Source: an uncultured Alphaproteobacteria bacterium (GTDB lineage: Bacteria; Pseudomonadota; Alphaproteobacteria; HIMB59; GCA-002718135). Taken from it: a stretch of DNA of 64,000 bases. Position 1 is the first letter of the stretch; each line of letters opens with the position of its first letter. Shown one piece after another: positions 37,864 through 60,824 of this stretch. The position numbers and the translations under genes were made by a program. The notes beneath the pieces are model-generated. The model worked only from the letters and a program-made list of their open reading frames with translations. It was not told the DNA's origin and did no database searches. The stretch covers positions 66,687 to 130,686 of the forward strand of contig CACBLW010000001.1 of the NCBI GenBank assembly GCA_902540265.1. Reading direction: 5' to 3'.

Positions 37864-38712
37864 TTATAGAATTTGAAAATAAACAACCGAAATACCACTC
37901 ACTATTAAAATAGAAGGTATTATTCGAGATTTTGCATTCTTCTCAAATAAAAAAAGCATTCCAATAATTGCAGCAAACACAATGCTTATTTCTCTAATAC
38001 TAGAGACATAAGCTATTTCTATAAATTGCATACTCCAAACAACAATTGCGTAACTACTTGTTGCAAAGACACCAGCAGCAATCCCCGATATAAAAGTGTA
38101 CGTTTCTTTTTTTCGTAAACCATCTTTTGAGATCAAACCAATAATTAGTAAAGGTATTCCATTAAGTGTGAAGAGCCAGTAAATATAGGAAAAACCATTT
38201 TCAGAAAGCCTAACCCCAACCCCGTCAACTAAAGTGTAAGCAGTAATTAGAATAGCCGTTGATATCGCGAGAGCAAAACCTCTAAAGTTAAAAGATAAAT
38301 TTTTAGCATAAGAAATTAAAAATAATCCAATACAAACAATTAATATTCCAACAAAACCAGCAACACTAATATCAGAACTTAAAAATAAAATACTAATGAT
38401 TGCTACAAACAAACATGAACTTCCTCTAGAAATTGGATATATGTAAGAGAGATCACCGTACCTATAAGAATAAATTACATTTAATCTATAAATGACATGA
38501 ATGATAACGGTTGCAATTAAAAAATACCAAACCTCTAAAGTTGGAAATGGAACAGTAAATGTTAAAGGTAAAAAAATAGTAACTTCTAAGACAGATGTTA
38601 TACCCATTAAAGATAATGGGTTCTTACTTGATTTTATTATAGCACTCCAAACTGCATGACATAGAGCAGAAACAAGAATTAAGATAAAAATAAAATTTAC
38701 TGACAATGTCAT
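37864..38712 (-). CDS. DMT/EamA-like membrane transporter
   Basis: 282 aa and polytopic. It lies 14 nt downstream of the ABC permease gene on the same strand. Confidence 0.7.
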   Translation of the reverse strand: MTLSVNFIFILILVSALCHAVWSAIIKSSKNPLSLMGITSVLEVTIFLPLTFTVPFPTLEVWYFLIATVIIHVIYRLNVIYSYRYGDLSYIYPISRGSSCLFVAIISILFLSSDISVAGFVGILIVCIGLFLISYAKNLSFNFRGFALAISTAILITAYTLVDGVGVRLSENGFSYIYWLFTLNGIPLLIIGLISKDGLRKKETYTFISGIAAGVFATSSYAIVVWSMQFIEIAYVSSIREISIVFAAIIGMLFLFEKNAKSRIIPSILIVSGISVVYFQIL

Positions 38713-41878: not shown

Positions 41879-43120
41879 GTGTCCGATAATTTAGAAATTA
41901 ATAAAAGAGAATATCCAAGCTCTTTCTCAAAAACTGCTATTGTTATATGCCTTGATGGTAGTCAAAAAGAGTATCTCGAAGAAGCATCAAAATCTAATCT
42001 TACACCAAATCTTGATAAATTAATTGCAAGTGGTGAAAACCTACTTGTTCACAGCGCTATTCCAAGTTTTACAAATCCAAATAACATTTCGATTGTAACA
42101 GGCCAACCAAGTTCTGTACACGGTATATGCGGAAACTTCTTTTATACACCTGAGACGGGTGAAGAAGTAATGATGAATGACCCAAAATATATGCGAGCAC
42201 CAACTATTTTTGAAAAATTTTACAATTCTGGTTCTAAAATTGCTCTTGTTACTGCAAAAGACAAGTTGAGAACACTTTTAGGAAACGGATTAAGTTTTGA
42301 TGATGAGAGAGCTATTTGTTTTTCTGCTGAAAAATCTGATCAAGCAACAAAAGATCTCAATGGTATAGATAATGTAAACGATTGGTTGGGGATGCCAGTT
42401 CCAGAAGTATATTCTGAAGGACTTTCTGAATTTGTAATGGCTGCAGGCGTAAAACTTCTTGAGGAGTTTAAACCAAATATTATGTATTTATCGACTACGG
42501 ATTATATTCAACACAAATATGCACCGGGAAATGAAACAGCAAATAAATTTTATGCAATGTTTGATAAATATATTGGACTTTTAAATAAGGAGAATGTTTC
42601 TATAATCATCACAGCAGATCACGGAATGAAACCAAAATCAAAAGAAGATGGTTCACCTAATGCAATATTTTTACAAGATTATTTAGATAAAAAATTTGAA
42701 CCAAACATGGCTAAAGTCATCCTACCAATTACAGATCCATATGTCGTTCATCATGGTTCACTTGGTTCTTTTGCAACAATTTATTTAGAAGACAAGAGCA
42801 GGGTAGATTCAGTTGTAAATGCTATTAAAGAAATAAAAGATATAGAAGTTGTTTTAACAAAAGATGAAGGATGCTCTACTTATAATTTACCTCCTGATAG
42901 AATGGGGGATATTATATGTATGTCTTCAGAATTTATGACTATTGGTTCATCGGAAGATAAACACAATCTTTCTGGATTAAATGAACCTTTACGTTCTCAT
43001 GGAGGACTCCATGAAAGAGAAGTTCCATTCATATCAAATTTAAAATTACAAAACTTAGATACTAGAAAACAATTATATAACTATGATGCATTTTATTATG
43101 CAATAAATGGAGCCCTATGA
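41879..43120 (+). CDS. phnA: Phosphonoacetate hydrolase
   Basis: 413 aa. The N-terminal region ([53 protein letters not shown]) closely matches my recollection of the characterised Pseudomonas fluorescens 23F PhnA. Confidence 0.9.
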
Positions 43121-44559
43121 TGCACAAAAAAATGATTAATGAAGCAATGCGTATTGCTGGAGAAAAAGTTACTTCAGATAAAACAATAAATGTTGAGTAC
43201 CCTTTTACAGGTGAAGTAATCGGAACTGTTCCTGCCGGTACTGTAGAGCATGCAAGAAAGGCTTTAGATATTGCTGCAAATTACCAACCTAAACTTACAA
43301 GATACGAGAGACAAAAAATTCTTCAAACTGCTGCAGAAGTACTTGTTAAAAGAAAAGAAGAAATTTCTGATATTATTACTTTAGAACTTGGTATTTCAAA
43401 ACAAGATTCTTTATACGAAGTAGGAAGAGCTTTTGATGTCTTTTCTTTAACGGCTCAACTTTGTATTCTTGATGATGGAGAAATATTTTCTTGTGATTTA
43501 ACTCCACATGGAAAAGCGAGAAAAATATTTACCATAAGAGAGCCCTTAACGGCAATTTCAGCAATCACTCCATTTAATCACCCTTTGAATATGGTAGCGC
43601 ATAAAATTGCTCCTTCAATTGCAACTAATAATTGTACAGTATGTAAGCAGACAGAATTAACACCTTTAACAGCAATGGTACTCGCTGATGTTTTATATGA
43701 AGCAGGTCTGCCACCAGAAATGTTTTCAGTTGTAACTGGATGGCCTCAAGACATTGGATCAGAAATGATCAAAAATCCAAATATTGATCTCATTACTTTT
43801 ACAGGTAGTGTAGGTGTAGGAAAATTAATTGCTGAACAAGCTGGATACAAAAGAACAGTTCTTGAGCTAGGTGGTAATGATCCATTAATTGTTTTAAATG
43901 ACTTAGATGCTGATGATCTTAAAAAAGCTGTTGAGCTAGCTGTTACGGGAGCAACGAAAAATTCTGGTCAACGTTGTACAGCTGTTAAAAGAATACTGGT
44001 TCAAGAATCTATTGCAGATCAATTTGTTGAAATGGCTCTTGAGCGTGCTAAGAAAATTAAATTTGGTGATCCTATGAATATGGAAACAGACTTAGGTACA
44101 GTTGTTAATGCTCAAGCTGCAGAACTTTTTGATAAAAGAGTTTCTATGGCTGAAGAAGACGGTGCAAAAATTTTATATCACCCTGGAAGAAAGGGTGCTT
44201 TGTTACCTCCAATAGTTGTAGATCATGTTGATCCTAAAAGTGAATTAGTTTTAGAAGAAACATTTGGTCCAGTTATCCCAATCATTCGTGTGCCTAATGA
44301 CGATGAAGCTGTAATGAAAATATCTAATTCAACCGCATTCGGATTATCATCTGGTGTATGTACAAATAACTTCATGCGAGCAAAAAAATATATTCAAGGT
44401 TTAAATGTTGGCACTGTAAATATTTGGGAGGTTCCAGGTTATAGAATTGAAATGTCTCCTTTTGGAGGAATTAAAGATTCAGGTCTTGGTTACAAAGAGG
44501 GTGTTATTGAAGCAATGAAAAGTTTTACTAATGTAAAAACCTTTTCGCTACCTTGGTAA
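43117..44559 (+). CDS. phnY: Aldehyde dehydrogenase, phosphonoacetaldehyde dehydrogenase-like
   Basis: 480 aa ALDH (ELGGNDP, catalytic GQRCTA, EETFGPV). It overlaps the phnA stop by 4 nt. The substrate is inferred from context. Confidence 0.8.
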
Positions 44560-44695: not shown

Positions 44696-45949
44696 ATGAA
44701 AAAATTAATTACAGGATTGGCTGCCGTATTAGCTTTTGGTTTTTATGGTTCTGTTAATTCAGCTAAGTCTATTGAAATAGAAGTAGCTTATCCTTATTCA
44801 GGATTATTCGATGTAACGTTTCAAGCTATTATGCCAGAGTTTGAAAAAGCACATCCAGATATTCAAGTTAAATTTAGAGCAACTTATGAAAACTATGAGG
44901 ATGCAACTGCAACAATCTTCAGAGAGTCTACTTCAGGTAATTTACCAGATGTAACAATGCAAGGTCTTAACAGACAAGCACCTCTAGTTGACAAAGGTAT
45001 TGCTAAGTCTTTAGAGCCATTTATTGCAAAAGAAGCTGCTTTTGAAAAAGATGGTTACCATTCTGCTATGTTAAGTCTTTCAACATTCGGTGGTGAAGTT
45101 TATGGATTACCATTTTCTGTATCAACGCCAGTTGGATATTATAATATGGATTTATTAGCTGAAGCAGGTGTAAATAGTATTCCAACTAACTGGGACGAAG
45201 TTATTGCAGCATGTAATAAATTGGAAGCAGCAGGTAAAGGAACTCTATACTTTGGTTGGAACATCACAGGTAACTGGTTCCACCAAGCATTAATGCACAC
45301 TCAGAATGTTCCAATGGTTAAAGATGGAGCTGTAAATATGGGTGGTGATGCAGGACTTGCAACGTTAGAGCAAATGAAAGCAATCATGAGCGGATGTAAT
45401 ATGCCAAACTATTCAATTGCTGATGGTCAAGCTGCGTTTAACGCAGGTACTATTGGTATGATGTTCTGGTCTACTTCAAGCTTGGGTTCAGTTAATGCTG
45501 CAAAGGCAGACTTTGTTTTAAAAACTGCACCATTCCCTGGAATGGCTGGAGTTAACAATGGAACACCAGCAAGATTACCAGCAGGTGGAAACGCTGCAAT
45601 GTTAGTGTCTACATCTGATGATCCAGCAAGAGTTGATGCTGCATGGACTTTCTTAAAGTTCATTACATCAGGTATCGGTGCTGCATTAGTTGCTGAAACA
45701 ACTGGATATGTTCCACCAAACAAAGCAGCGAATGAATTATTAGGAGATTTCTATAGTAAAAACCCTAATAAACTTACTGCTGTTGAACAACTTCCACTTC
45801 TTGCAGATTGGTTTGCATATCCTGGAGAAAATGGATTAGCTGTTACACAGGTAATCTATGATTACACAGAAGAAATTGCTACAGGCGACGCTGATGATAT
45901 GGGTGATCTCCAAGAAGAAATGATGGAAGAAATAAACGATCTTATGTAA
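44696..45949 (+). CDS. Periplasmic substrate-binding protein, family 1 (UgpB/CUT1-like)
   Basis: 417 aa with a signal peptide, a GGAGGG RBS and its own strong terminator. It is the likely partner of the divergently encoded permeases and ATPase. Confidence 0.85.
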   Translation: MKKLITGLAAVLAFGFYGSVNSAKSIEIEVAYPYSGLFDVTFQAIMPEFEKAHPDIQVKFRATYENYEDATATIFRESTSGNLPDVTMQGLNRQAPLVDKGIAKSLEPFIAKEAAFEKDGYHSAMLSLSTFGGEVYGLPFSVSTPVGYYNMDLLAEAGVNSIPTNWDEVIAACNKLEAAGKGTLYFGWNITGNWFHQALMHTQNVPMVKDGAVNMGGDAGLATLEQMKAIMSGCNMPNYSIADGQAAFNAGTIGMMFWSTSSLGSVNAAKADFVLKTAPFPGMAGVNNGTPARLPAGGNAAMLVSTSDDPARVDAAWTFLKFITSGIGAALVAETTGYVPPNKAANELLGDFYSKNPNKLTAVEQLPLLADWFAYPGENGLAVTQVIYDYTEEIATGDADDMGDLQEEMMEEINDLM

Positions 45950-46036: not shown

Positions 46037-47116
46037 ATGCCTCTTAAAACAACTACAATAGGTGCTTATCCAAAACCGAAACAAACACCTATTCAAGATT
46101 GGTTTTTAGGGACAAAATCAGAAGAAGAGAGAAAAGCGTCAAAAGGATTATTATCAAATTGGTCACCTGGCGCATATGAAAAAGCATTAGAGTCTGCAGG
46201 TGCAGATGCTGAAAAATTATTTTTAGCAGCAATTAAAGAAGTTATAACTGATCAAGTAAATGCGGGTATTGATGTTCCAACAGATGGAGAAGTCAGACGT
46301 GAGAGTTACGTATTATATCAATGTCGATTTTTAAATGGTGTAAGTTTTAAGGAAGTTACACATAAGTCAGTAAGACAAGGCGCGTTCGAAGCTGACCTTC
46401 CAACTATTGTTGCACCAATTTCAAGTAAAGAAATACGTATGTATTTAGACTGGAAGAGTGCACAACAATTTACAAAAAACCCAGTTAAAATTACGCTACC
46501 TGGACCAATGACAATTACAGATTCAATTGCTAACAATTACTATGATGACATGAAAAAACTTGGTTTTGATTTAGCATTAGCTCTCAATAAAGAAATTAAG
46601 GCACTTGTGGATGCAGGTTGTCAGTATATTCAAATTGATGAACCAGTATTTGCTAGAAAACCCGATGAAGCTCATTCATATGGTATGGAAAATTTAGAAA
46701 GAATGATGCATGGTATTCCTAAAGAAGTGCAACGCGTTTGCCATATTTGTTGTGGTTATCCTAACTCATTAGACTCAGAAGGGTATAAAAAGGCTGATCT
46801 AGATGCTTATGATAGAATTGCATCACTGGTAGATGATTCAACTATTGATGAAGTATCTTTAGAAGATTCACATAGGCATAATGATTTAAATCTTTTAGAA
46901 AAATTTACTAAAACAAAAGTAATTTTTGGATTTATTGATATTGCAAAAAGTAGAATGGAGTCTGTTGAAGAGGTAAGAGTTCGTATCAAAGATTCACTTG
47001 AACATATTGATGAACACCGCTTAATAGCTGCACCAGATTGTGGTTTAGGTTTCTTTACACGAGAACAAGCAATTGAGAAAATGACAATTCTAACTAAAGC
47101 GGCAAAATCAATTTAA
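46037..47116 (+). CDS. Cobalamin-independent methionine-synthase-II-like Zn alkyltransferase (MetE C-terminal-domain family)
   Basis: 359 aa. TIGAYPKP, DGEVRRESY and IQIDEP motifs are present. Putative Zn ligands are CHICCGY (HxC) and APDCGLGF. Confidence 0.75.
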   Translation: MPLKTTTIGAYPKPKQTPIQDWFLGTKSEEERKASKGLLSNWSPGAYEKALESAGADAEKLFLAAIKEVITDQVNAGIDVPTDGEVRRESYVLYQCRFLNGVSFKEVTHKSVRQGAFEADLPTIVAPISSKEIRMYLDWKSAQQFTKNPVKITLPGPMTITDSIANNYYDDMKKLGFDLALALNKEIKALVDAGCQYIQIDEPVFARKPDEAHSYGMENLERMMHGIPKEVQRVCHICCGYPNSLDSEGYKKADLDAYDRIASLVDDSTIDEVSLEDSHRHNDLNLLEKFTKTKVIFGFIDIAKSRMESVEEVRVRIKDSLEHIDEHRLIAAPDCGLGFFTREQAIEKMTILTKAAKSI

Positions 47117-47120
47117 GGTA

Positions 47121-48233
47121 ATGTGGAATTATTTTAATCCTGTTGAAATTATCTTTGGAGAAAATAGATTTACAGAAGTACATGATGCTCTTAAAAATAA
47201 GAACTACATCATAATCACTCATCCAGAGGAAATTTTTAAAAAATATAGCGATGAATTAAAATCTTCTTCAAATCCACCTTTATCCATTATGACCGATGTT
47301 CAGCCTAATCCAGATTATAAGGATATTTTAGAACTACAAAATAAATTTTCTTCAATCAATGAATCGGTAGATTATATTTTAGCTATAGGTGGTGGCTCTG
47401 TTACAGACACAGCTAAAGCAATTGCTGCATTTAAAGATAAACAAGAATATCTAACAGATTTCGTTCGTAATAAGAAAAATCCAAGAGTCGAAAATCCAAT
47501 CAAGATTATTGCAATACCTACAACTTCAGGAACATCAAGTGAGCTTACGTGTTGGGCCACAATTTGGGATAAAGAAAAAAACAATAAATTATCTTTGGCG
47601 CATAAATCTCTTTATGCAGAAAAAGCAATTATCGATCCATCTATTATGGTTGATAAACCTTTAGGCTTGACCATTTCAACAGGTTTAGATGCTCTCTCTC
47701 ATTCAATGGAAAGTATTTGGAATATTAATGCAAACCCAATTTCTGCTTCTCATGCAATACAAGCATCAAAATTAGTATTAGAAAATTTACCACTTCTCGC
47801 TAAAGATTTAAGAAGCGTTGAATTACGTTCAAACATTGCACTGGCATGCGTTCATGCTGGCTTAGCGTTTTCCAATACAAAAACTGCTATTGCGCACAAT
47901 CTATCATACCCTGTGACGCTCAATTACGGCATTCAACATGGTATTGCTTGTTCATTTACTTTACCCATGATTACTAAAAGTATGGTTGGAATTGATAGTG
48001 TCGCTGAAGAAAGACTAAAGTTAATTTTTAACGATAACCTTGAAAATGCCGCAAATCATCTGAGTGAATTTATGCGTTCTTTAGAGGTTCCTCTTAACTT
48101 AAATGAAATAAAAGTTCCTGTTCAAGAATGGAATAATATAGTAGATGATGCGTTTTTAGGGGAACGAGGTAAAAACTTTATTGGCAATAAAGAAGCCTTC
48201 ATCTCTTCTGCTAAATCAATGGGACTTTATTAG
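47121..48233 (+). CDS. Iron-containing (group III) alcohol dehydrogenase; candidate phosphonoacetaldehyde reductase / 2-hydroxyethylphosphonate dehydrogenase
   Basis: 370 aa. Motifs FNPVEIIFGEN, AIGGGSVTDTAK, GLDALSHSME and AIAHNLSYP are present. The substrate is inferred from the phosphonate context only. Confidence 0.8.
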   Translation: MWNYFNPVEIIFGENRFTEVHDALKNKNYIIITHPEEIFKKYSDELKSSSNPPLSIMTDVQPNPDYKDILELQNKFSSINESVDYILAIGGGSVTDTAKAIAAFKDKQEYLTDFVRNKKNPRVENPIKIIAIPTTSGTSSELTCWATIWDKEKNNKLSLAHKSLYAEKAIIDPSIMVDKPLGLTISTGLDALSHSMESIWNINANPISASHAIQASKLVLENLPLLAKDLRSVELRSNIALACVHAGLAFSNTKTAIAHNLSYPVTLNYGIQHGIACSFTLPMITKSMVGIDSVAEERLKLIFNDNLENAANHLSEFMRSLEVPLNLNEIKVPVQEWNNIVDDAFLGERGKNFIGNKEAFISSAKSMGLY

Positions 48234-48235
48234 TA

Positions 48236-49342
48236 ATGAAAAAAAATTTCAGGTTTTATGATAACAGACAAAAATACTTATTATTTGTCACAACAACAAA
48301 TGAAAAAAATCAAATTGCTGATGCGATACGCCCTCACATAAATAAAATTAAACCTCAAAAACCTGGCATAAAAATATTTGATGCTGGTATGGGTGATGGT
48401 TCCTTACTTATGAATGTTATGCGTCAGTGCCACGAGGCTAAGCCTAACGTACCTTTATTAGTTTGCACAAAAGAAATAAGCATAGAAGATGTAAGATTAG
48501 GTTTAGAAAAATTACCCGATAGGTTTGTTGAACATAAGAATACGGTTTTTGTCATTTCAAATCTACACTACGCTGAAGCTGCAAACCTAAAATCAAAAAA
48601 TGAAGTTAAACAGAAAAAAATTAATTGGAATATTATTAAATTAAAAGGAGATACCTCTCTTGAATTTGCCCAACAATTAAGAAAACAAAATGAATTTTTA
48701 GAAAAAAAATGGAATATAGAAATTAATAAAAAGTCAGGTAACCATACTTATAAAGAGCCTTCAGTCATGGTTATCTACCGCGAAGATCAAGAATTTAATG
48801 TAAATGAATTAATACCTACCAAAAAAAAATCAGATAATAAATTTGATCTTATTATTGCTTCACAGCCTTATCGTTCAAGAATCACAGCAGAAAAGAAATC
48901 AAAATATGTCATCGAACCAATGATTAGAGCGTTAAAATCAAAAGGGAAATTATTAACTATTCATGCTTCAGGAAAAGATCCTGCTAATGAAATAATTCGT
49001 AAAATTTGGCCAAAAGAGGACCCATTTCCTTCTCTTGGAAATAGTATCATTTCTTATCTTAAGAAAAATTTAGATAAAGATTTATTAAGAAGATTATCTT
49101 TTGGAGAAAAAAGAATTATTAAATGTAAATTGAGAGCTCTACCAACAGAAATCAGCGGAGGTATAGCGACATCATTAGTTTTTTCTGCTTGGAATGCCTC
49201 CATATATGTCAATCAAATGGATGACGACAAAGTAATGAAAGTAGAAAAAACTAAAAACTATGAAAAAATTGTTCAAAACATTGTTGCTAAAAATAAAGGT
49301 CTTTATTTTAACAATGAAATATTTGTAATCGAAAAAAAATAA
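48236..49342 (+). CDS. Hypothetical protein with Rossmann methyltransferase-like motif
   Basis: 368 aa. IFDAGMGDGS resembles SAM motif I, and DLIIASQPY and GKLLTIH resemble later motifs, with a long insertion between them. I recognise no characterised homolog. Confidence 0.45.
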   Translation: MKKNFRFYDNRQKYLLFVTTTNEKNQIADAIRPHINKIKPQKPGIKIFDAGMGDGSLLMNVMRQCHEAKPNVPLLVCTKEISIEDVRLGLEKLPDRFVEHKNTVFVISNLHYAEAANLKSKNEVKQKKINWNIIKLKGDTSLEFAQQLRKQNEFLEKKWNIEINKKSGNHTYKEPSVMVIYREDQEFNVNELIPTKKKSDNKFDLIIASQPYRSRITAEKKSKYVIEPMIRALKSKGKLLTIHASGKDPANEIIRKIWPKEDPFPSLGNSIISYLKKNLDKDLLRRLSFGEKRIIKCKLRALPTEISGGIATSLVFSAWNASIYVNQMDDDKVMKVEKTKNYEKIVQNIVAKNKGLYFNNEIFVIEKK

Positions 49343-49346
49343 TTTT

Positions 49347-50135
49347 TTATTTAAACCAATTAACTTCTGTTTTTAAAAAATCCTCTGTATGAATAATTAA
49401 GGCGTCAGATCGAATTATTGCAACATTATAATTTGTATCTGTATTAGCCGTTCCTAAACGATATTCATTTGAAAAGTTAGGTATTAGAGGAGACCAAGTA
49501 CTTCTTGGGGAGGAAAAAGTAATACCACAATAAGAGCCAGAACTTGTAATGTGTTGATGACCAAAAAAAATATGTTTTATTATATTATTATTTTTAGTTA
49601 AAATTTGTTGAAACTCTTTTTTTTGTTGTAATCCTATTCCATCACTTTCCTCTTTTACTAATGCCAGTGGATTATGATGCATAAAGATGTACGTATCCGT
49701 ATTAGTCTTACTTAAAATATTATTTAACCATTCTTGCCTCTCTTCACAATAATGTCCTTGGTGAGTGTTAATCAGATTAGTATCTATAAAAATTAAACGT
49801 TTATTATCTATATCCTTAAAGTATTGAATAAATCCATTTGGATCGGTTTCAATATCAGGAAAGTTTATTTTAAATTCATCTCTGTTATCATGATTACCTA
49901 TAATTAGTTGAGGATTTAAATTCTTCGGCAGACCTGCTTCATCAATTATTTTTAAAAATAACTGATAAGAATCTTTATCACCTAAGTCTGTAATATCACC
50001 TGTGATGGCAAATAAATCTGCATCACCATGATTATTTTTTATATGAGTTAATGCTTTTTTAAATTTACTGACAGGATCTATGCCATGAATCTTATCAATA
50101 TAAATATGAGGGTCTGAAAGGTGAATAATTTTCAT
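49347..50135 (-). CDS. Calcineurin-like metallophosphoesterase / phosphodiesterase
   Basis: 262 aa. Motifs HLSDPH, GDITDLGD, GNHDNR, MHHNP and GHQH are present. Confidence 0.8.
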   Translation of the reverse strand: MKIIHLSDPHIYIDKIHGIDPVSKFKKALTHIKNNHGDADLFAITGDITDLGDKDSYQLFLKIIDEAGLPKNLNPQLIIGNHDNRDEFKINFPDIETDPNGFIQYFKDIDNKRLIFIDTNLINTHQGHYCEERQEWLNNILSKTNTDTYIFMHHNPLALVKEESDGIGLQQKKEFQQILTKNNNIIKHIFFGHQHITSSGSYCGITFSSPRSTWSPLIPNFSNEYRLGTANTDTNYNVAIIRSDALIIHTEDFLKTEVNWFK

Positions 50136-50155: not shown

Positions 50156-50788
50156 TTAGATCGCAGTTTTAAAATAAATATACTTATTAAATTCCTCTTT
50201 TAAGTCGATGCTAACTCTTGCATGTACTTTACCTTGTTTTCCTTGAAACGATTGTTTTTCTGTAACTGGAAACACCCCTTCATGCCAAATATTTGGATGA
50301 ATATACAAACCTTTTGATCCGTCACAATAAAATGCTTTAAAATGTTCTGGTTCAATGTCGTCTGTAGGTAAGGCTAAAGGACAAATAAATGGTTTATTTT
50401 CTTCAGGAAAGAAAAGCTGACCTCCATCAGGATGATAATTTGCATGCCATAAAAAAATTTTTGTTGGATCTGAATATTTATCTTTTTGTAATTCTTGATC
50501 AGGATTATTGGCATAACCCAGTATATATTTTCCATCTACCTCATAATCGCTCTTATGTTGAACAGCATTATTTTGTCCATAAAGAACATCACCTTGCCAC
50601 CAGGTATCAAAAGAACCTTCGGTAGTTCCACCTTCATTACCAGTTCCCTCTTCTATGTCGCGCCATCCTTGTTTTGGCCAAGTAACAATTTCAATATCAC
50701 TATTTTCAAAACTATCGATTAAATATCCGTATCCCTTAAGATTTTCATTTGTTGCTTTAACTAATGGTATTTCAATTTCTTTTGTCAT
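50156..50788 (-). CDS. Ureidoglycolate-lyase (AllA)-like cupin-fold protein
   Basis: 210 aa. HPDGGQLFFP..KPFICPLAL..FKAFYCDGSKGLYIHPNIWHEGVF parallels the AllA-family core as I remember it. The function here is unknown. Confidence 0.55.
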   Translation of the reverse strand: MTKEIEIPLVKATNENLKGYGYLIDSFENSDIEIVTWPKQGWRDIEEGTGNEGGTTEGSFDTWWQGDVLYGQNNAVQHKSDYEVDGKYILGYANNPDQELQKDKYSDPTKIFLWHANYHPDGGQLFFPEENKPFICPLALPTDDIEPEHFKAFYCDGSKGLYIHPNIWHEGVFPVTEKQSFQGKQGKVHARVSIDLKEEFNKYIYFKTAI

Positions 50789-50795: not shown

Positions 50796-51893
50796 TTAGT
50801 TTAATGTTAATCCCAATTCAGTAACGACTTCTTTTACAGCTTTTATCGTATCCATCATGTCTTGTTCATCTAAATTACCAATACACCCAATTCTAAAAGT
50901 TTCTGCCACTGTTAGTTTTCCTGGATAAATTAAAAAATCTTTTTCACTAAGAGCATTATAAAATTTCTCAAAGTTAAATTTAGGATCATTAGGTTGTTTA
51001 AACGTAATAATAATTGGTGCTTGTAAATTATCAGGAAGTAGTTGCTCAAATCCCAACTCTTTCATTCCATTACAAATAATTTCACAATTTTTTTTATATC
51101 TTTTACCTCTTCCTTTTACACCGCCTTGTTCTTTATGTTCTTCAATAGCTTGGTTGAATGCAGCTAATACGTGTGTTGGAGGTGTAAATCGCCATTGTTT
51201 ATTTTTTTCCATTGCTTGCCATTGATCATACAAGTCTAGACTTAGTGAGTGACTATTGCCTTTTGCATTTTGAATAACTTCATTTTTAACAAGAATGAAA
51301 CCAACACCTGGCACACCTTCTAAGCATTTGTTTGATGAAGCGGCTACAGCATCAAAAGTAATTGTTTTAGAACTTAAGGGTAATGCACCAAAGGCACTCA
51401 TTGCATCGATGAATAACGATAAATTTTTCCCCTCAACCAATTTTGCAATGTCTTCAATAGGATTTAAAATACCCGATGTCGTTTCACAATATACAGCAAA
51501 GACGTGTGTTAAGTTGTTGCTATCAATTAAGTCTTCAATTTTATTGATGTCATGTACTTCATTTTCAGCAACTTCATATTCAATAAAATCTCTCCCTAAA
51601 TATGTGCACATTTTTTTCATTCTTTGTCCGTAAGCACCATTGATCAGAATCAGAATTTTAGAATCTTTTTGAGTAAGAGAGCTTACCATCGACTCTACGG
51701 CAAAAGTTCCACTTCCCTGCATTGGAACACATTGATATTTATCTTCACCGTCTATTAATTTAACAAGGGAATCTCTAATTGATGCATTGAGATCAATAAA
51801 TTTTGTATCTCTCGAACCCCAATCATGAAGCATAGCCTCTTTTGTTGACATCGATGTCGTGAGAGGACCAGGGGTTAATAATTTTTTATCCAT
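50796..51893 (-). CDS. phnW: 2-aminoethylphosphonate--pyruvate transaminase
   Basis: 365 aa. The N-terminus LLTPGPLTTSMSTKEAMLHDWGSRD is typical of PhnW. A class V aminotransferase core with an SNKCLEG Lys region is present. Confidence 0.9.
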   Translation of the reverse strand: MDKKLLTPGPLTTSMSTKEAMLHDWGSRDTKFIDLNASIRDSLVKLIDGEDKYQCVPMQGSGTFAVESMVSSLTQKDSKILILINGAYGQRMKKMCTYLGRDFIEYEVAENEVHDINKIEDLIDSNNLTHVFAVYCETTSGILNPIEDIAKLVEGKNLSLFIDAMSAFGALPLSSKTITFDAVAASSNKCLEGVPGVGFILVKNEVIQNAKGNSHSLSLDLYDQWQAMEKNKQWRFTPPTHVLAAFNQAIEEHKEQGGVKGRGKRYKKNCEIICNGMKELGFEQLLPDNLQAPIIITFKQPNDPKFNFEKFYNALSEKDFLIYPGKLTVAETFRIGCIGNLDEQDMMDTIKAVKEVVTELGLTLN

Positions 51894-51981
51894 TAAATAT
51901 TTACTTAATAAATATTATTATAAATTTGATCAATCTTATTAAAGTTGGAATTGAATTTATTTTCTAATAAGTTAATTATAA

Positions 51982-52557
51982 ATGAAAATGGAAGAAAATA
52001 TTGTAGACTATCTCTTACATCTTTTGAAAACAAAAGGTGCTGATATTCAATATGGTAATGAGGATGTGACACAGCTTGAGCACGCACTCCAATGCGCTGA
52101 ACTTGCTGAAAAAAATAAATTACCAGGACCAACAATTGCTGCAGCATTACTGCATGATGTTGGCCACCTTATCTATGAGGACGGCGATCCCATTCATGAA
52201 GGGAAAGATGGTCATCATGAAAATTTAGGTGCTGATTTTTTAAAAAAATATTTTGGTGAGGATGTTATTTTACCAATTAGAGCACATGTTGACTCAAAAA
52301 GATATTTATCAAGTGTTGAAGAAGGTTATTATGATAGTCTATCAGAAGCATCGAAACTTTCGTTAAAAGTTCAAGGTGGTCCTTTCACAAAAGAAGAAGC
52401 AGATGCGTTTATAAGCAAACCTTTTATGGATGAAGCAGTAGAGCTTAGAAGATTTGATGATTTAGCAAAAATTCTAGATAAAAAAACTCCCGATGTTGAA
52501 CATTTCCGTCCCTATTTAGAAGAAGCAAGAGAGTCTTTTTTAGCTAAACAAGCGTAA
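51982..52557 (+). CDS. phnZ: HD-domain phosphonate oxygenase-like protein (PhnZ family)
   Basis: 191 aa. QLEHALQCA, AALLHDVGH, HHENLGADFL and HVDSKRYL align with the diiron ligand blocks of PhnZ as I remember them. Confidence 0.75.
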   Translation: MKMEENIVDYLLHLLKTKGADIQYGNEDVTQLEHALQCAELAEKNKLPGPTIAAALLHDVGHLIYEDGDPIHEGKDGHHENLGADFLKKYFGEDVILPIRAHVDSKRYLSSVEEGYYDSLSEASKLSLKVQGGPFTKEEADAFISKPFMDEAVELRRFDDLAKILDKKTPDVEHFRPYLEEARESFLAKQA

Positions 52558-53082
52558 ATGCAATTAAGCAACTATGATTTTATTGACTCTAAGTCATTTG
52601 CAGGAAAAATTATATTAACTTCTTTCCCAGGTCTTAACTCTAATGGTTTATTTGAAGAAACAATTTTAGCAAACGAATTAGAAATATTTAAAAATAATAA
52701 TTGTAGTTCTATTACTTCTTTTGTTGAAGATAGCGAATTTGAAAAATTGTGTGATAAAACTTTGTTTGTCAAAAATATTTATGAACATAAATTACATTGG
52801 TACCATTTACCCATTTATGACATGGGAGCACCAGATAAAGATTTTAAATATAAATGGGAAACAACAAAAGTTTTATTAAAGAACGAATTGATAGATGGTA
52901 AAAATATAGTCTTACATTGTCGTGGAGGAAAAGGAAGAGCTGGCACTATAGCTGCTATTTTACTTGTTGAATTTAATTATGAAAAACAAGAAGCTATTGA
53001 TTTAGTGCGATCAAGAAGAAAAGGAGCTATTGAGTCAAAAATCCAAGAAGATTTTATTTTTTCTTATCGAGCAGTTAATTAA
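52558..53082 (+). CDS. Dual-specificity / PTP-like CX5R phosphatase
   Basis: 174 aa with the active-site loop HCRGGKGRAGT. Its start abuts the phnZ-like stop (TAAATG). Confidence 0.7.
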   Translation: MQLSNYDFIDSKSFAGKIILTSFPGLNSNGLFEETILANELEIFKNNNCSSITSFVEDSEFEKLCDKTLFVKNIYEHKLHWYHLPIYDMGAPDKDFKYKWETTKVLLKNELIDGKNIVLHCRGGKGRAGTIAAILLVEFNYEKQEAIDLVRSRRKGAIESKIQEDFIFSYRAVN

Positions 53083-54131
53083 AAAGAGACCGTTAAATTA
53101 AAAATATTTTCTAGAATAAATAAAACAATTAAAGAAATTAAAGCTGCAATTATAGGTAGCGTCATCCAACCCAAAGAAATTCTACCTGCAATTGACCATT
53201 GAACCTCTTTTCCTCCTTTTAAAAGACCAATTCCAATTACGCCGCCGACAACAGCTTGGGAACTTGATACTGGTACCAAAGGTATAGAGGGAAGATTTAT
53301 AGATTGTAAAAAAGCACTTATACCCTGGGATGCAAATAAAAATAAAACAATAGAATGCGATATAACAACAATAAATGCTGCCACTGGTGTCATTTTTAAG
53401 AGATCATTACCCACGGTAAACATAACTCTTTTCGAGTAAGTAAAAACACCAACAGCTATTGCTAAACCACCCAGCAGAAATAATTGTTCTTTTGAGGAAA
53501 AGACAAATAAATTTCCAATAGTAACATCAGTAAACGGTGATATAGGTACGAAGACACCCATTACATTGGCAATATTGTTTGCACCTAAACTATAAGCACC
53601 AAAAGCACCCGCTAAAAGTAAAGCTGTTCTTGTATAGGCATCAAGTCTGAGAATATGTAACTTTCTATTGAGTATAACTCTTTTTGTAAAAGTAAATAAA
53701 CCCATTGCAATAACTCCTGCAATGATAGGGCAGAGTATCCATGTTCCTAAAATAGTAATTAAAACTTGAAGATTAGTTGAAGATCCCGTGTATAAATTCC
53801 AACCAACAATTGCTCCAACAATCGCTTGCGTTGTTGAAACAGGCAAGCCAACTTTGGTCATTAAATAAACGGATATGCCTGCAGCCACACATGCTGCAAA
53901 GGCACCAGGTAATGCATTAATAGCACCTAACTTACCTAAAGTTTCTGTTGTTCCTGCTCCACTAATAATTGCACCTAGAATAACAAAGACACTACAAATT
54001 ATTGCTGCACTTGTGAAACTAACCATTCGTGTTCCAACTGCAGTTCCAAAAACATTTGCTGCATCATTGGCACCAAGTGACCAACCTAAAAAAAAACCAC
54101 CAAATAAAAAAATTAGAATTGTAATTTCCAT
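53079..54131 (-). CDS. pit: Inorganic phosphate transporter, PiT (PHO4) family
   Basis: 350 aa. The motif GANDAANVFGTAVG occurs at the N-terminus and GANNIANVMG in the repeat. The protein is polytopic. Confidence 0.9.
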   Translation of the reverse strand: MEITILIFLFGGFFLGWSLGANDAANVFGTAVGTRMVSFTSAAIICSVFVILGAIISGAGTTETLGKLGAINALPGAFAACVAAGISVYLMTKVGLPVSTTQAIVGAIVGWNLYTGSSTNLQVLITILGTWILCPIIAGVIAMGLFTFTKRVILNRKLHILRLDAYTRTALLLAGAFGAYSLGANNIANVMGVFVPISPFTDVTIGNLFVFSSKEQLFLLGGLAIAVGVFTYSKRVMFTVGNDLLKMTPVAAFIVVISHSIVLFLFASQGISAFLQSINLPSIPLVPVSSSQAVVGGVIGIGLLKGGKEVQWSIAGRISLGWMTLPIIAALISLIVLFILENIFNLTVSF

Positions 54132-54137
54132 TGAAAA

Positions 54138-54800
54138 TTAAACGGAACGTTTAATAGCGTAAATTTGAACCTCGTCAGCTATGTCTTCTGCTTGATCACA
54201 AATACGATCAATTTTTTCTACAAAATATCGAAGATGCATTTTTTGATCTAGAGGTAATTCAGAATCAAAAATTCTTCTTGCAAGTGAACTAAATTTTATA
54301 TCAGATTCTTTTTCATAAAAAGTTACTTTATGAGCATTATCTCTAACAGATTTAATATCTCTAAAAAATGATCGGACAGTCAAACAAAGTGACTCAACAC
54401 AATTTACAACAGTCTCTGTTAACTCAATAAGATCTTCATGAAATTCTTTTGGAAAATTAGGTTTTTGAATAGAGAAGTGATAGCAATTTCCTTGGTACAT
54501 TCCAATTAATTCGTCGATGTGTTCTAGAAGTCGTAACACATCACTTCTTGCATCTGGGATTAGTGTTTCTTCATAAAGAGTATGCTCAACATCTTTTGTA
54601 ATTTTGTCGGCCTTACTTTCCATTTCTTTAACTTTTTCAACCATTTCCTCAAATTTACCATTGGCGGAATGATTGAGATAAGTTGGAACTATCGATTTAA
54701 ATACCAAACCTACTTCAGAGACAATATCAACAAACTCATCAATTTCTCTTTCAAGCTTTTTGGTATCACCAAATAATGATGCACTTTTTAATCCAAACAT
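54138..54800 (-). CDS. DUF47 / PhoU-like Pit accessory protein (TIGR00153 type)
   Basis: 220 aa and helical. It lies upstream of pit in the canonical pairing. Confidence 0.8.
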   Translation of the reverse strand: MFGLKSASLFGDTKKLEREIDEFVDIVSEVGLVFKSIVPTYLNHSANGKFEEMVEKVKEMESKADKITKDVEHTLYEETLIPDARSDVLRLLEHIDELIGMYQGNCYHFSIQKPNFPKEFHEDLIELTETVVNCVESLCLTVRSFFRDIKSVRDNAHKVTFYEKESDIKFSSLARRIFDSELPLDQKMHLRYFVEKIDRICDQAEDIADEVQIYAIKRSV

Positions 54801-55151: not shown

Positions 55152-55567
55152 AAAATAAAAATATTCTTTTTATGTGTGTTGCTAATTCAGCAAGAAGTCA
55201 AATGGCTGAAGGAATTGCAAAAAAATTATATCCTAATTGCATTATTCAAAGTGCAGGATCAGTGCCCAAAGAAGTTAATCCTAATGCTATCGAGGTTATG
55301 GGTGAAATCGATATTGATATATCAAAACATTATTCAAAAGATTTTGAAAGCTTAGACAACAAATTTAGAGATGAATTAAATACCGTTTTTACGCTTTGTA
55401 AAGAAGAGGTATGTCCAGTTTTAAATTCCAAAGCTCAGATATTTTCAATACCATTTGATGATCCGGCATCAGATCATTTTAGTTCAAACCAATTAGATAA
55501 ATTTAGAGAAGTAAGAGATTCAATTTTTGATAAATTGAAAGAACTAAAAAATTTATTTGAGAATTAA
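55148..55567 (+). CDS. arsC: LMW-PTP-fold arsenate reductase-like protein
   Basis: 139 aa with the P-loop CVANSARS (CX5R) and a second Cys pair, LCKEEVCP, as in thioredoxin-coupled ArsC. Assignment as ArsC rather than LMW-PTP is not certain. Confidence 0.65.
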   Translation: MKNKNILFMCVANSARSQMAEGIAKKLYPNCIIQSAGSVPKEVNPNAIEVMGEIDIDISKHYSKDFESLDNKFRDELNTVFTLCKEEVCPVLNSKAQIFSIPFDDPASDHFSSNQLDKFREVRDSIFDKLKELKNLFEN

Positions 55568-55704
55568 TGAAGTTAAAAATTAATTAAATTTATAAAAATT
55601 TAATATTCCATTAATCTATTTGTAAACAATAAAATTTAAATGTTTCTTACCACTCACAGTATTATTTCCTCCTGCTAATTACCAATAATTGTGAGTGGGA
55701 TTAA
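55508..55704 (+). repeat. Direct repeat copy A (last 20 codons of the arsC-like gene plus a downstream hairpin element)
   Basis: It aligns end to end with 58520-58715, at roughly 80-85% identity by my hand alignment. The first 20 nt are identical, and so are several 15-20-nt blocks. Confidence 0.85.
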
Positions 55705-55778
55705 TTTTTTATTTCTCCTTTTTCGAGTACTTTAACAATTGTTTAACATTATAAAATTAAGAATTTAAAGTAAATTTT

Positions 55779-58519: not shown

Positions 58520-58715
58520 GAAGTAAGAGATTCAATTTTCAAAAATTGAAGGAACTAAAAAATTTATTTGAAAACCAATAAATTAAAAAATTAGTTTAAT
58601 TTATAAAAATTTAATATTCTATTAACACGTCTGTAAAAAATAAAATTTAATTACATCTTACCACTCGCAGTATTATTTCTTCCTGCTTATGTCCAATTAT
58701 TGTGAGTGGGATTAA
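58520..58715 (+). repeat. Direct repeat copy B (decayed arsC 3'-end relic plus hairpin element)
   Basis: It has the same order and orientation as copy A. The coding-derived part reads EVRDSIFKN* and has no upstream ORF. Confidence 0.85.
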
Positions 58716-58724
58716 ATTCCATTT

Positions 58725-60824
58725 TCAAATTTTTAAATTAGACTTAGCTCTAGATTTGAGTTTTGCTGAACCCCTCCCAGACAAGCTTGGATTTTTGATA
58801 AAAAAATTGTGAGAGGAAAATTTTTTTTCTTTGCTTGATATTTCTTTTTTCTGATAATTGCCATTACTCAACATTTGCCAAGAATTTGTATTATCTGCCA
58901 TACTGGCAATTAAGATCTGATTTAATATTTGTTCATGTACAGTTTCATTTTCAATAGGGATGAATGTTTCAACCCGCCTATCTAGATTTCTTTGCATTAA
59001 ATCGGCAGAAGAAATAAACAAGATATTTTTTCTATGAGGGAATTTATGACCGTTATAAAAACAATATATTCTCGTATGTTCTAAAAAACGACCAATTATA
59101 CTTTTAACAACTATATTTTCCGATAGATTTTCTTTACCAGGTATTAGAGAGCAAATTCCTCTTATCAACAATTCAATTTTTACATTTTTTTGAGATGCTT
59201 TATAAAATTCATCAATAATTTGTTTATCAACAAGAGAATTACACTTACATACTATTCCAGATGGTTTATTTTTTCCAGCATTTGTAATTTCATTTCTAAT
59301 TAGTTCATTTAATTTGTTTCTTGCAGTTATTGGAGAATATACTATTTTTTTTATTGTGGTTGGTTCTGAATAACTAGTTAAATAATTAAACATTTTTGCA
59401 GCATCATTTGTTAATGTTTTGTCACAGGTGAAGTAAGATAAATCCATATAAACTCTTGCATTTCTTGGGTGATAATTACCTGTTCCATAATGTGCGTAAT
59501 TTACAACAGAATTCATTTGCTTCCTTGTTACAAGTGTAATTTTTGCATGAGTCTTCATATCAATATTGCCAAAAACAACTTGCGCTCCAGCTAATTCTAA
59601 TTCTTTTGCCCATTTTAAGTTACGCTCTTCATCAAAACGTGCTTGCAACTCTATAATGACAGTTACTAATTTTCCTTTTTGTGCTGCTCTAACTAAACTT
59701 GCTTCTATTGGTGAGTCATCAGTAGTTCGGTATAAAGTATGTTTTATTGATAAGACTTTTGGGTCATCTGCAGCTTGATCAATAAACTGAGTCACTACTT
59801 CAAAAGATTCAAAAGGGTGATGAATAACAATATCTTTATTTGCTATAGCTTTAAAATAATCATTTTTAAAATCTTTAATTCTTTCAGGAAATCGTACCTT
59901 AAATTTTGGAAAAAATAATTTTTTAAAATCTTTCAAAAAAATTGACTCTATACTCGAAAGATTAACGGGTATTGGCAGTTTATATGTATTTACATCCTTA
60001 TAGTTAAGTTTTTTATTTATGAATTTAATTAAGTGACTAGATATACTTTCATCAAAATCAATTCTTATTACCTCTTGTCTTCTTCTCTCAAAAATAGCTT
60101 TTTGAAATACTAAAAATAAATCTTCTCCCTCACCACCTAATTCTAATTCACTATTCCTAATTGGTCTAAAAACACCTTTATCCAAAACCCTATCACACTG
60201 GAAAATTTCTTTTAGAGAAATAAGTAGGGCTGTCTCCATAGATACAAAACGTGTTTTTTTACCAGGTAATTTAATAAATTTTTCTAATCCCTCTGGCACT
60301 CTCAGTATTCCATAAAAAGTTTTTTTATTATTTATTAAACGACATACTAAGGTTGTTTCTTTATTTGGTATAAAAGGAAATGGGTGAGATGGATCAATAA
60401 TAATTGGCGTTAAAACTCCCCAATTATTTTCTTCTAAATAATTTTTAATAAATGTTTTATCTTTTGTTTTCAGTGTTTTTTCTACATCTATATGGATTTT
60501 GTTTTCTGAAAGCTCTCTTAGTAAATCTATCCATATTGATTTTATATTTGAAATCATCTTCGATGTTTCTTTATCTATCAGCTTGAGTTGTTGTTGTGGT
60601 GTTAATCCATCAAAACTTTTATTTCGTGAAAATTTTTGAACATTCAATCCTGCTACTCTAACCATAAAAAATTCATCTAAATTAGAGAATGCTATTGATA
60701 AAAATCTAACCCTTTCTAAAAGTGGAATTTTACTATCAGATGTCTGACTTAAGACTCTTTCATTGAATTTTAGCCAAGACAATTCCCTGTTTGCATAGTT
60801 ATAAGTGGTATTTTTTTTTAACAT
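58725..60824 (-). CDS. ppk: Polyphosphate kinase 1
   Basis: 699 aa. The N-terminus is NRELSWLKFNERVL. The sequence has the PPK1 four-domain length, and HAKI and related blocks are present. Confidence 0.95.
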   Translation of the reverse strand: MLKKNTTYNYANRELSWLKFNERVLSQTSDSKIPLLERVRFLSIAFSNLDEFFMVRVAGLNVQKFSRNKSFDGLTPQQQLKLIDKETSKMISNIKSIWIDLLRELSENKIHIDVEKTLKTKDKTFIKNYLEENNWGVLTPIIIDPSHPFPFIPNKETTLVCRLINNKKTFYGILRVPEGLEKFIKLPGKKTRFVSMETALLISLKEIFQCDRVLDKGVFRPIRNSELELGGEGEDLFLVFQKAIFERRRQEVIRIDFDESISSHLIKFINKKLNYKDVNTYKLPIPVNLSSIESIFLKDFKKLFFPKFKVRFPERIKDFKNDYFKAIANKDIVIHHPFESFEVVTQFIDQAADDPKVLSIKHTLYRTTDDSPIEASLVRAAQKGKLVTVIIELQARFDEERNLKWAKELELAGAQVVFGNIDMKTHAKITLVTRKQMNSVVNYAHYGTGNYHPRNARVYMDLSYFTCDKTLTNDAAKMFNYLTSYSEPTTIKKIVYSPITARNKLNELIRNEITNAGKNKPSGIVCKCNSLVDKQIIDEFYKASQKNVKIELLIRGICSLIPGKENLSENIVVKSIIGRFLEHTRIYCFYNGHKFPHRKNILFISSADLMQRNLDRRVETFIPIENETVHEQILNQILIASMADNTNSWQMLSNGNYQKKEISSKEKKFSSHNFFIKNPSLSGRGSAKLKSRAKSNLKI

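Follow-up and report, generated by a model that had tools for sequence, protein, structure and literature searches.

Genes under study

The stretch of DNA analysed here, 64 kb in length and called the window below, contains a gene for an HD-domain protein resembling the phosphonate oxygenase PhnZ (here HD) and, immediately behind it, a gene for a CX5R phosphatase of the protein tyrosine phosphatase type (here PTP). Judged from sequence, the setting of this pair is a phosphorus-acquisition island of SAR11 (Pelagibacterales), which runs from about 37.8 kb of the window onward. The HD protein is 93-99% identical to its counterparts in dozens of GORG single-cell genomes (uncultured Alphaproteobacteria, Pelagibacteraceae) and shares 74-80% identity with those of other Pelagibacterales. 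A set of 88 sources, i.e. the window and 87 related loci, was used for comparison; since a single order supplied all of the loci, many of them near-identical, the locus counts given below are not independent of each other. The pair and the region upstream of it are as follows.

51982-52557, forward strand: predicted HD oxygenase of the PhnZ family, 191 aa (TIGR03276, PDB matches to TmpB and PhnZ, ligand mapping)
52558-53082, forward strand: predicted CX5R phosphatase (PTP), PRL/KAP/SsoPTP-like, 174 aa (PF22784, PDB matches, fold)
51894-51981, no strand: AT-rich intergenic region of 88 bp between the divergent genes phnW and HD, presumed promoter region of both operons

The first ATG of HD, at 51982, is not conserved, and the relatives read MRMEEN, MKMEEN or MEEN at this end. 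Since in several of them the reading frame starts where HD has its second ATG, at 51988 (MEEN...), this is probably the true start, and the product is probably 189 aa in length.

Sequence features of the HD protein

The HD protein matched the family model TIGR03276 ("phosphonate degradation HD-domain oxygenase") at model positions 2-176 of 179 with an E value of 6e-60 (201.8 bits), and its only matches in the PDB, both full-length, were TmpB (6NPA, E 4e-33) and PhnZ (4MLM, E 4e-29). The preliminary description of this stretch had claimed that the 191-aa protein carries the His/Asp ligands of PhnZ, leaving it to an alignment to tell whether these diiron ligands are conserved. The alignment bore the claim out: the PhnZ iron ligands H34, H58, D59, H80, H104 and D161 correspond to H34, H58, D59, H79, H102 and D159 of the window protein, and all six are invariant in 88 homologues. 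The phosphonate-binding residues of PhnZ, K108, S126, T129, Q133 and R158, align to K106, S124, S127, Q131 and R156 of HD, T129 being replaced by Ser. The YxxE loop is kept as Y24-G-N-E27, and PhnZ H62 is matched as well. All 14 mapped positions (the ligands, YxxE, H62 and the phosphonate-binding set) are invariant in the 88 SAR11 homologues (56 unique), and the mapped positions are also invariant in 29 diverse relatives, where of the phosphonate-binding set this applies to K, S, Q and R. The dN/dS values of HD, 0.03-0.12, indicate purifying selection. The six-residue diiron motif H...HD...H...H...D has been defined previously, and the YxxE loop (Y24/E27 in PhnZ, Y30/E33 in TmpB) gates the substrate and sets PhnZ and TmpB apart from MIOX (PMC8177086). 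We infer from these features that the 191-aa protein is a genuine HD-domain mixed-valent diiron oxygenase of the PhnZ/TmpB type, with predicted oxygenase activity.

The SAR11 HD proteins share 37% identity with PhnZ and 39% with TmpB, which are 35% identical to each other. Placement on a phylogeny of HD oxygenases had been suggested in the preliminary description; in a neighbour-joining tree of 149 HD domains, star-like and without support values, the SAR11 proteins did form a long-stemmed clade of their own, but such a tree cannot assign a substrate. By these comparisons the clade of SAR11 HD proteins constitutes a separate subfamily of PhnZ.

At an E value of 1e-10 or better, HD matched 1,829 library representatives. 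The longer ones among them fall into two groups, in which HD is fused either to a hydroxylase (PhyH in 7 by Pfam, TauD plus GBBH_N in 2) or to an enzyme of a hydrolytic pathway (HD-PhnX in P0254, where PhnX gave an E value of 7e-71, HD-Zn-ADH and PhnN-like), and the latter group suggests that PhnZ homologues have repeatedly been recruited beside hydrolytic pathways without a hydroxylase. Fusions were seen in P0249, P0254, P0261, P0279 and P0333, which come from outside SAR11; the Zn-dependent alcohol dehydrogenase (ADH) partner is of the PbfG type, the PhnN-like partners are kinases, and MFS also occurs among the fusion partners. One HD-HAD fusion has a HAD of uncertain type, with AlnB and a sugar phosphatase as its best PDB matches, and might be a pairing of oxygenase and phosphatase that arose independently. 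As a group, the HD-HAD fusions were discarded as a parallel to such a pairing, because at least one is clearly HD-PhnX, PhnX being a C-P hydrolase, and another is ambiguous. In viral contigs only two distant HD relatives (37-38% identity) were found, located at 6001-6531 of L093 (IMG/VR GVMAG-M-3300023174-61, a metagenome-assembled genome of a giant virus) and at 2725-3300 of L094, and the HD-PTP module is not obviously phage-borne.

Sequence and predicted fold of the phosphatase

The preliminary description had read the next gene, starting at TAAATG, as a CX5R phosphatase with the loop HCRGGKGRAGT, and the open reading frames (ORFs), the junction and the loop are indeed as it gave them. The P-loop VLHCRGGKGRAGT comprises H120-C121-RGGKG-R127-AG-T130 (HCRGGKGRAGT), and the protein matched PF22784 with 48.7 bits (cut-off 27). 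By sequence it also matched SsoPTP and PRL-1 in the PDB, the general-acid loop included; D88 (PIYDMGAP) aligned to the PIPDGGVP loop of SsoPTP and occurs in every one of 86 sequences. C121, R127 and T130 are present in all of the 85 full-length homologues, and C65, which aligns to C49 of PRL-1, is kept in 84 of 86 sequences. The AlphaFold2 model of PTP has a pLDDT of 91, and its closest Foldseek matches were PRL-1/2/3, KAP and archaeal PTPs, with TM scores of 0.65-0.77 (0.71-0.77 for PRL-1 and KAP); the E values of PRL-1, KAP and SsoPTP were 2e-9 to 3e-7. As for HD, the dN/dS values (0.04-0.27) indicate purifying selection. On the strength of its motifs and its predicted fold, PTP is a genuine member of the CX5R phosphatases. 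A word-indexed search of 5.8 billion proteins gave 247 matches to PTP, and the homologues seem to be confined to the same marine lineage.

Because a PiT phosphate transporter gene and a gene for an LMW-PTP/ArsC-like protein lie nearby and PTP has conserved extra cysteines, we also considered that it might be an arsenate reductase or a redox enzyme. This was rejected as the main reading, since none of the homologues departs from the general-acid Asp and some of them have another residue in place of C65.

Linkage of HD and PTP

At the junction, GCG TAA ATG, the start codon of PTP follows the stop codon of HD with 0 nt between them. Both genes were found in 86 of the 88 sources, the other 2 being without PTP within the sequence covered, and they are adjacent in 83 of the 86; in the remaining three (L001, L073 and L080) they are split by a 4.9-kb cassette of EamA and ABC-transporter (ATP-binding cassette) genes. 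The gap between HD and PTP is 0-6 nt in 78 loci, namely 0 nt in 67, 2 nt in 6, 3 nt in 4 and 6 nt in 1, and the junction sequences differ between subclades. The pair is kept down to identities of 74% (HD) and 72% (PTP), with dS of about 1 or more in most comparisons. It is intact despite cassettes between phnW and HD (L082 and L083), in L078, where phnW is absent within 10 kb, and in loci with cassettes between PTP and PiT or with PiT missing (L075, L085-L087 and L053-L058). HD was also next door in all of six further metagenomic contexts of PTP homologues, and every PTP homologue whose context was examined has an HD gene within 5 kb. On the other side, PiT is the direct neighbour of PTP in 74 loci; the two genes converge and their stop codons overlap, by 4 nt in the window.

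The preliminary description had taken HD and the phosphatase to be expressed together, and the comparison agrees with this: with gaps of 0-6 nt and no terminator found, HD and PTP very probably share one operon, and they are probably translationally coupled. The DNA is AT-rich, and the terminator scan, which found none, is uninformative, as is the promoter scan, in which 11 promoter-like sites stood against a shuffled expectation of 8.2 +/- 2.9. The 88-bp spacing between phnW and HD is shared by 56 loci, its sequence being patchily conserved across subclades, and no clear Pho-box-like motif was found in the aligned intergenic regions. No link between a tyrosine or dual-specificity phosphatase and either SAR11 or phnZ came up in a literature search, and the HD-PTP pair appears to be undescribed so far.

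The cassette of about 4.9 kb, which consists of an EamA gene, a binding protein of the SBP_bac_11/6 type, an ATPase and a fused permease of 555-567 aa, was observed at three junctions: between HD and PTP (L001, L073 and L080), upstream of HD (L078 and L083) and downstream of PTP (L085-L087). In L078 and L083 it is joined by a gene for a DAO-family FAD oxidoreductase, probably an enzyme of the PbfB/C/D type. An integrase gene lies upstream of HD in L002 and an integrase fragment upstream of HD in L001.

Search for a partner hydroxylase

In the preliminary description HD was called an orphan PhnZ, no gene for PhnY* or TmpA being found in the window. We scanned every window ORF of at least 180 aa with Pfam, and no PhyH, TauD or any other 2-oxoglutarate (2OG)-Fe(II) family was found among them. 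In addition, all ORFs of the 87 related loci were clustered and the accessory clusters scanned against Pfam. These encode transporters, an FAD oxidoreductase of the DAO family, an SDR, proteins resembling choline kinase and homocysteine methyltransferase, GDPD and Pst/Znu components, and no oxygenase was among them. The PhyH-type and TauD-type domains of HD-fusion proteins in distant relatives were used as hydroxylase queries in tblastn and hidden Markov model searches of the window and 92 loci (1.72 Mb), and nothing was obtained, the best E value being about 1. The absence of a PhnY* or TmpA gene from the window was thus upheld and extends to the 92 loci. The term orphan is apt in that no partner hydroxylase lies nearby, but the situation is not an unexplained one, as phnZ without phnY* in phnWAY clusters has already been published.

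Other genes of the island

The other genes of the island are listed below in the order of increasing distance from the pair, those on the phnW side first.

50796-51893, reverse strand: PhnW, 2-aminoethylphosphonate (AEP):pyruvate transaminase (TIGR02326, 459.6 bits against a cut-off of 400.8; NF010006, 511.5 bits)
50156-50788, reverse strand: cupin of the AllA (ureidoglycolate lyase) family (PF04115; AllA profile and fold matches)
49347-50135, reverse strand: calcineurin-like metallophosphoesterase, SpdA/CpdA-like phosphodiesterase (PF00149; NF050112, 175 bits, under cut-off)
48236-49342, forward strand: conserved 368-aa protein with a weak S-adenosylmethionine (SAM)-methyltransferase signature (PF13847 alone, E 9e-4; no NCBIfam match)
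47121-48233, forward strand: PhpC-type iron-containing ADH, read as 2-hydroxyethylphosphonate (HEP) dehydrogenase (TIGR03405, 364 bits, under the cut-off of 423.7)
46037-47116, forward strand: MetE-like protein, cobalamin-independent methionine synthase catalytic domain (PF01717, 122 bits)
44696-45949, forward strand: ABC substrate-binding protein of the UgpB/SBP_bac_1/8 type (family matches)
43117-44559, forward strand: PhnY, phosphonoacetaldehyde dehydrogenase (TIGR03250, 798 bits against a cut-off of 635.65)
41879-43120, forward strand: PhnA, phosphonoacetate hydrolase (TIGR02335, 467.5 bits against a cut-off of 407.55)
38727-41702, reverse strand: Ugp-like ABC transporter, two permeases and ATPase (family matches)
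37864-38712, reverse strand: membrane protein of the EamA family, phosphonate-associated DUF6 type (TIGR03340, 142 bits, under cut-off; PF00892)
53079-54800, reverse strand: PiT (PHO4) phosphate transporter and PhoU_div (DUF47) (PF01384, 207 bits; PF01865, 82 bits), convergent with HD-PTP

The scores of PhnW, PhnY and PhnA each exceed the curated equivalog cut-off, and with a lone PhnZ homologue in the same cluster these three make up a phnWAY cluster with an accessory phnZ. No class-III aminotransferase, as PbfA would be, was found by Pfam among the scanned window ORFs. The 368-aa methyltransferase-like protein is present in 73 of the 88 sources.

The cupin at 50156 had been put forward in the preliminary description as a non-canonical hydroxylase, for which we found no support. 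Its one Pfam family is PF04115 (ureidoglycolate lyase), and a profile of 27 cupin homologues matched only AllA structures (E 7e-10), with which the motifs HP.G.Q.F.P and H.N.WH are shared. The Foldseek matches of its model (pLDDT 76, moderate) at an E value of 1e-3 or better were five AllA chains and one DUF4867 chain, and no TauD, PhyH, HepD or HppE was among the top 50. The cupin gene is linked to phnW and not to HD: in all 80 loci it lies directly downstream of phnW at a distance of 7 nt, and in L001 and L078 HD-PTP has no cupin gene within 10 kb. These results point to an undescribed enzyme working with PhnW. In a metagenomic contig (L088, 3595-5340) phnW and the cupin are called as one 581-aa Aminotran_5 plus Ureidogly_lyase protein, which may be a true fusion or may have arisen through an indel artefact, the neighbouring genes there being fragmented.

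A third route named in the preliminary description, leading from AEP through HEP to hydroxymethylphosphonate (HMP) with the help of the ADH, is unlikely: a HepD-like gene is absent from the window, and work of 2026 showed that PhpC-type iron-containing ADHs of catabolic clusters turn HEP into phosphonoacetaldehyde by oxidation, for use by PhnX or by PhnY-PhnA (PMC13576164). By analogy, we read the island ADH as a PhpC-type HEP dehydrogenase that would feed PhnY-PhnA. The NCBIfam model label "PsrA" for this ADH traces to a Burkholderia lipid-peroxidation study and is uninformative here, and the NAD-dependent HAEP racemase PbfF was ruled out as its identity, since PbfF is a member of another family (pfam02826).

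Themes of methyl transfer and quaternary amines turn up repeatedly in the island. Besides the MetE-like gene (46037-47116) and the gene of the SAM-methyltransferase-like 368-aa protein (48236-49342), two genes with a homocysteine-S-methyltransferase domain are inserted between PTP and PiT in L075 (11209-13459), and an OpuAC-type binding protein gene and a choline-kinase-like gene lie beside HD in L082 (5730-9626). These genes may relate to N-methylated aminophosphonates.

Beyond PhoU_div follow DUF6552, an LMW-PTP/ArsC-like protein and a cassette of acyltransferase, metallophosphoesterase and glycosyltransferase genes, and further on Ppk, a histidine phosphatase, Ppx, a protein of the aquaporin family and a glycosyltransferase (GT4). 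Two copies of a direct repeat of 199 nt, at 55525-55723 and 58536-58734 of the window and 82% identical, bracket the 3-kb acyltransferase/metallophosphoesterase/GT4 cassette; the repeat begins inside the 3' end of the LMW-PTP/ArsC-like ORF and holds a hairpin, CCACTCACAG...TTGTGAGTGG, without an Rfam family match. With respect to ppk, the cassette is found in both orientations among related SAR11 loci, a pattern suggestive of recombination at the 199-nt repeats. Its genes resemble the PlcP-Agt lipid-renovation genes. The Rfam scan of the window gave no match, and there are no tRNAs in the window. A DUF1800/DUF1501 gene pair lies at 18206-20790, upstream of nucleoside-salvage genes.

Proposed function and alternative explanations

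We consider it rather probable that HD works without a dedicated hydroxylase, on alpha-hydroxyphosphonates taken from seawater, beside the hydrolytic route for AEP and HEP. The preliminary description had listed the use of environmental alpha-hydroxyphosphonates among three possibilities, and it is the best supported of them. In our proposal such compounds would enter the cell already hydroxylated, so that HD would need no Fe/2OG hydroxylase. The most likely substrate would be (R)-1-hydroxy-2-aminoethylphosphonate (R-HAEP), to be cleaved to glycine and inorganic phosphate (Pi); the alternative would be HMP, giving formate and Pi. R-HAEP is a natural product (PMC8154272), HMP and methylphosphonate esters are present in the high-molecular-weight fraction of marine dissolved organic matter (PMC6581173), and GmPhnZ from Gimesia splits both R-HAEP and HMP (PMC10574752). 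Glu27 contacts the substrate amino group in PhnZ and TmpB (PMC8177086), and its retention in HD tilts the choice toward an amino substrate. HD would then form an accessory branch of C-P cleavage beside the hydrolytic route, in which AEP (by PhnW) and HEP (by the PhpC-type dehydrogenase) would be converted into phosphonoacetaldehyde, this into phosphonoacetate by PhnY, and the latter into acetate and Pi by PhnA; the role of HD here would be that of PbfA in other phnWAY clusters. For PTP our best guess is that it would be the second enzyme to release phosphate in the cytoplasm, controlled by phosphate starvation in the same way as HD, and would take no step in the HD reaction, and co-expression of two phosphate-releasing enzymes is treated as the default view of the pair. 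The analysis shows that HD belongs to the family by sequence, that a hydroxylase is locally absent, which genes the island contains and that the pair is conserved; from this we infer the oxygenase activity, the HD substrate, the co-regulation of HD with PTP and all that is said of the PTP substrate.

Several points weigh against this proposal. The HD score of 201.8 bits is 13 bits under the curated cut-off of TIGR03276 (214.6), and HD reaches 155.7 bits on the TmpB equivalog NF049941 and 154 bits on the PhnZ1 HMP dioxygenase equivalog NF052439, the cut-off of both being 300. Since the SAR11 HD proteins are as far from PhnZ and TmpB as these are from each other, the substrate is not transferable by orthology, and we found no biochemical characterisation of any member of the SAR11 HD clade in the literature. 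An uptake system specific for R-HAEP or HMP was not identified in the island. The hydroxylase search reached over the 64-kb window and the related loci, and the gene may lie elsewhere in the genome. Finally, the linkage of HD and PTP is tighter and more persistent than mere co-regulation predicts and survives the surrounding cassette insertions. All HD-PTP loci belong to one order, and their counts are inflated by shared ancestry.

Four other explanations were weighed. That HD is no oxygenase but an ordinary HD phosphohydrolase, the annotation first given to PhnZ, is hardly credible: its Pfam match is indeed to the generic HD domain only (32 bits), but it has the full six-ligand set and the PhnZ/TmpB-specific YxxE loop, the E value of 6e-60 to the PhnZ family model TIGR03276 and an end-to-end alignment with two structurally proven oxygenases. 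It is unlikely, too, that HD has a hydroxylating partner, either a PhnY* or TmpA encoded elsewhere or the cupin or the 368-aa protein, and that AEP, methylphosphonate or methylated AEP is hydroxylated in the cell. Such a partner would accord with the fact that PhnZ, GmPhnZ, TmpB and PhoF all work with a hydroxylase (PMC10574752) and with the many HD relatives fused to PhyH or TauD domains; the view is limited to 64 kb of the genome, conserved genes of the island (MetE-like, 368-aa protein, cupin and metallophosphoesterase) are unexplained, and the cupin has several invariant His/Asp/Glu residues. However, neither the window nor the 1.7 Mb of related loci gave a 2OG-oxygenase match, the His motifs of the cupin are the AllA signature and its fold matched AllA alone and not TauD, PhyH, HepD or other oxygenases, the cupin is tied to phnW (80/80) and missing near HD-PTP in L001 and L078, and ocean metagenomes hold about 6-fold more phnZ than phnY*.

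The remaining two concern the phosphatase. PTP might be a regulatory protein phosphatase or a regulator of the transporter (PiT/PhoU_div, compare PRL-CNNM), chemically unlinked to HD and merely placed in the same starvation island. The nearest structures (PRL-1/2/3, KAP and archaeal PTPs) are protein-directed or regulatory, the PRL-like second cysteine C65 is kept in 84 of 86, and PTP abuts PiT in 74 loci; yet PTP stays with HD where PiT is displaced or absent (L053-L055, L057, L058, L075 and L085), PTP and PiT are convergent and not co-transcribed, and a cognate kinase or a CBS-domain protein was not seen nearby. We give this reading a small chance. Quite unlikely, finally, is a dedicated, SAR11-specific module of two enzymes acting in two steps, in which PTP, by an unprecedented dephosphorylation or de-esterification, would free an alpha-hydroxyphosphonate for HD from esterified or phosphorylated forms, a class of phosphonate substrate so far unrecognised, in the debris of marine phosphonolipids and phosphonoglycans or other polysaccharides. 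The persistence of the pair speaks for it: HD and PTP are adjacent in 83 of 86 sources with gaps of 0-6 nt although synonymous sites are saturated, cassettes inserted upstream or downstream leave the pair unbroken, all examined PTP homologues lie within 5 kb of HD, and these homologues (247 matches) are apparently restricted to the same marine lineage. Against this, tight coupling is dispensable in the 3 split loci, where PTP stands behind an ABC permease, and HD relatives outside SAR11 are never fused to a PTP domain. Moreover, no known natural substrate requires both activities, the chemistry of PhnZ gives Pi directly (plus glycine or formate) so that a phosphatase is unneeded, and in a single order the linkage may be inherited rather than selected. 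If this module were true, it would explain a large share of the oceanic "phnZ" signal now misassigned to AEP oxidation.

Comparison with known systems

The orphan arrangement of phnZ is ordinary for phnWAY clusters and for SAR11, and it has already been published. In a survey of 19,425 complete genomes, Zangelmi et al. 2021 (PMC8154272) reported a phnZ homologue in 24 of 75 phnWAY and 15 of 1,186 phnWX clusters, never together with pbfA, and the phnZ of phnWAY clusters without phnY* is read as processing R-HAEP separately from AEP. In the Global Ocean Sampling (GOS) data, phnZ, phnY* and phnA were estimated to occur in 9.4, 1.6 and 11.2% of genomes, respectively (PMC3266647). Grote et al. 2012 already listed phnZ for strain HTCC7211 (PMC3448164), Murphy et al. 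2021 split phnZ into subclades of which characterised ones are rare (PMC8316502), and Lockwood et al. 2022 assigned 45% of marine phnZ sequences, the largest share, to Pelagibacterales and found phnZ and phnA often together (PMC9381506). According to a 2023 review, estimates of phnZ abundance disagree, from less than 1% to about 20% of cells, depending on whether uncharacterised clades are included (PMC10574752).

In ocean metagenomes, phnZ-like genes rank with the most abundant genes of phosphonate catabolism. Knowledge of the HD substrate would settle which share of the marine "phnZ" signal derives from AEP, whether the carbon ends as glycine or as formate, and which dissolved phosphonates SAR11 can use. 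What remains of interest is an abundant SAR11 PhnZ clade with a near-invariable, lineage-restricted, PRL-like phosphatase behind HD, and this conserved downstream PTP is a cheap lead to the physiological substrate of HD.

The closest parallel in gene arrangement is given by the phnWAY and phnWX clusters with phnZ of Zangelmi et al. 2021, in which PhnZ is a functional analogue of PbfA; the architecture and the proposed disposal of R-HAEP, with which PhnW-based routes cope poorly, are the same. The available sections of that study contain no SAR11-specific description and no notice of a phosphatase, and compared with the clusters described there the present island has in addition the PhpC-type HEP dehydrogenase, the AllA-like cupin, the MetE-like protein and the metallophosphoesterase. 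Among the enzymes, the R-HAEP oxygenase PhnZ of the uncultured bacterium HF130_AEPn_1 (4MLM/4MLN), which is also marine, is of the same length class as HD, has the same ligands and YxxE loop and aligns to it from end to end; it differs in its identity of 37%, its separate clade, its phnY* neighbour and T129, which is Ser in HD, whereas HD differs from it in having a CX5R phosphatase gene directly behind. TmpB of Leisingera caerulea (6NPA), the oxygenase for (R)-1-hydroxy-2-(trimethylammonio)ethylphosphonate, is the best PDB match of HD (39% identity) and has the same ligands and YxxE loop, but its partner TmpA (TauD plus GBBH_N) has no counterpart gene in the window or the related loci. The PhnZ1 proteins of Gimesia maris and Prochlorococcus MIT9301, HMP dioxygenases of the methylphosphonate oxidative pathway, belong to the same family as HD, and HMP is a plausible ready-made substrate from seawater; they are paired with a methylphosphonate-specific PhnY*. 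PTP resembles PRL (PTP4A), KAP/CDKN3 and SsoPTP/Tk-PTP in its HCX5R(S/T) P-loop, its upstream general-acid Asp and its fold, and shares the second cysteine with PRL, but it is only 20-30% identical to them, is bacterial, has the basic residues R122 and K125 in its P-loop, and is encoded in a phosphonate/phosphate island, immediately behind a predicted diiron oxygenase.

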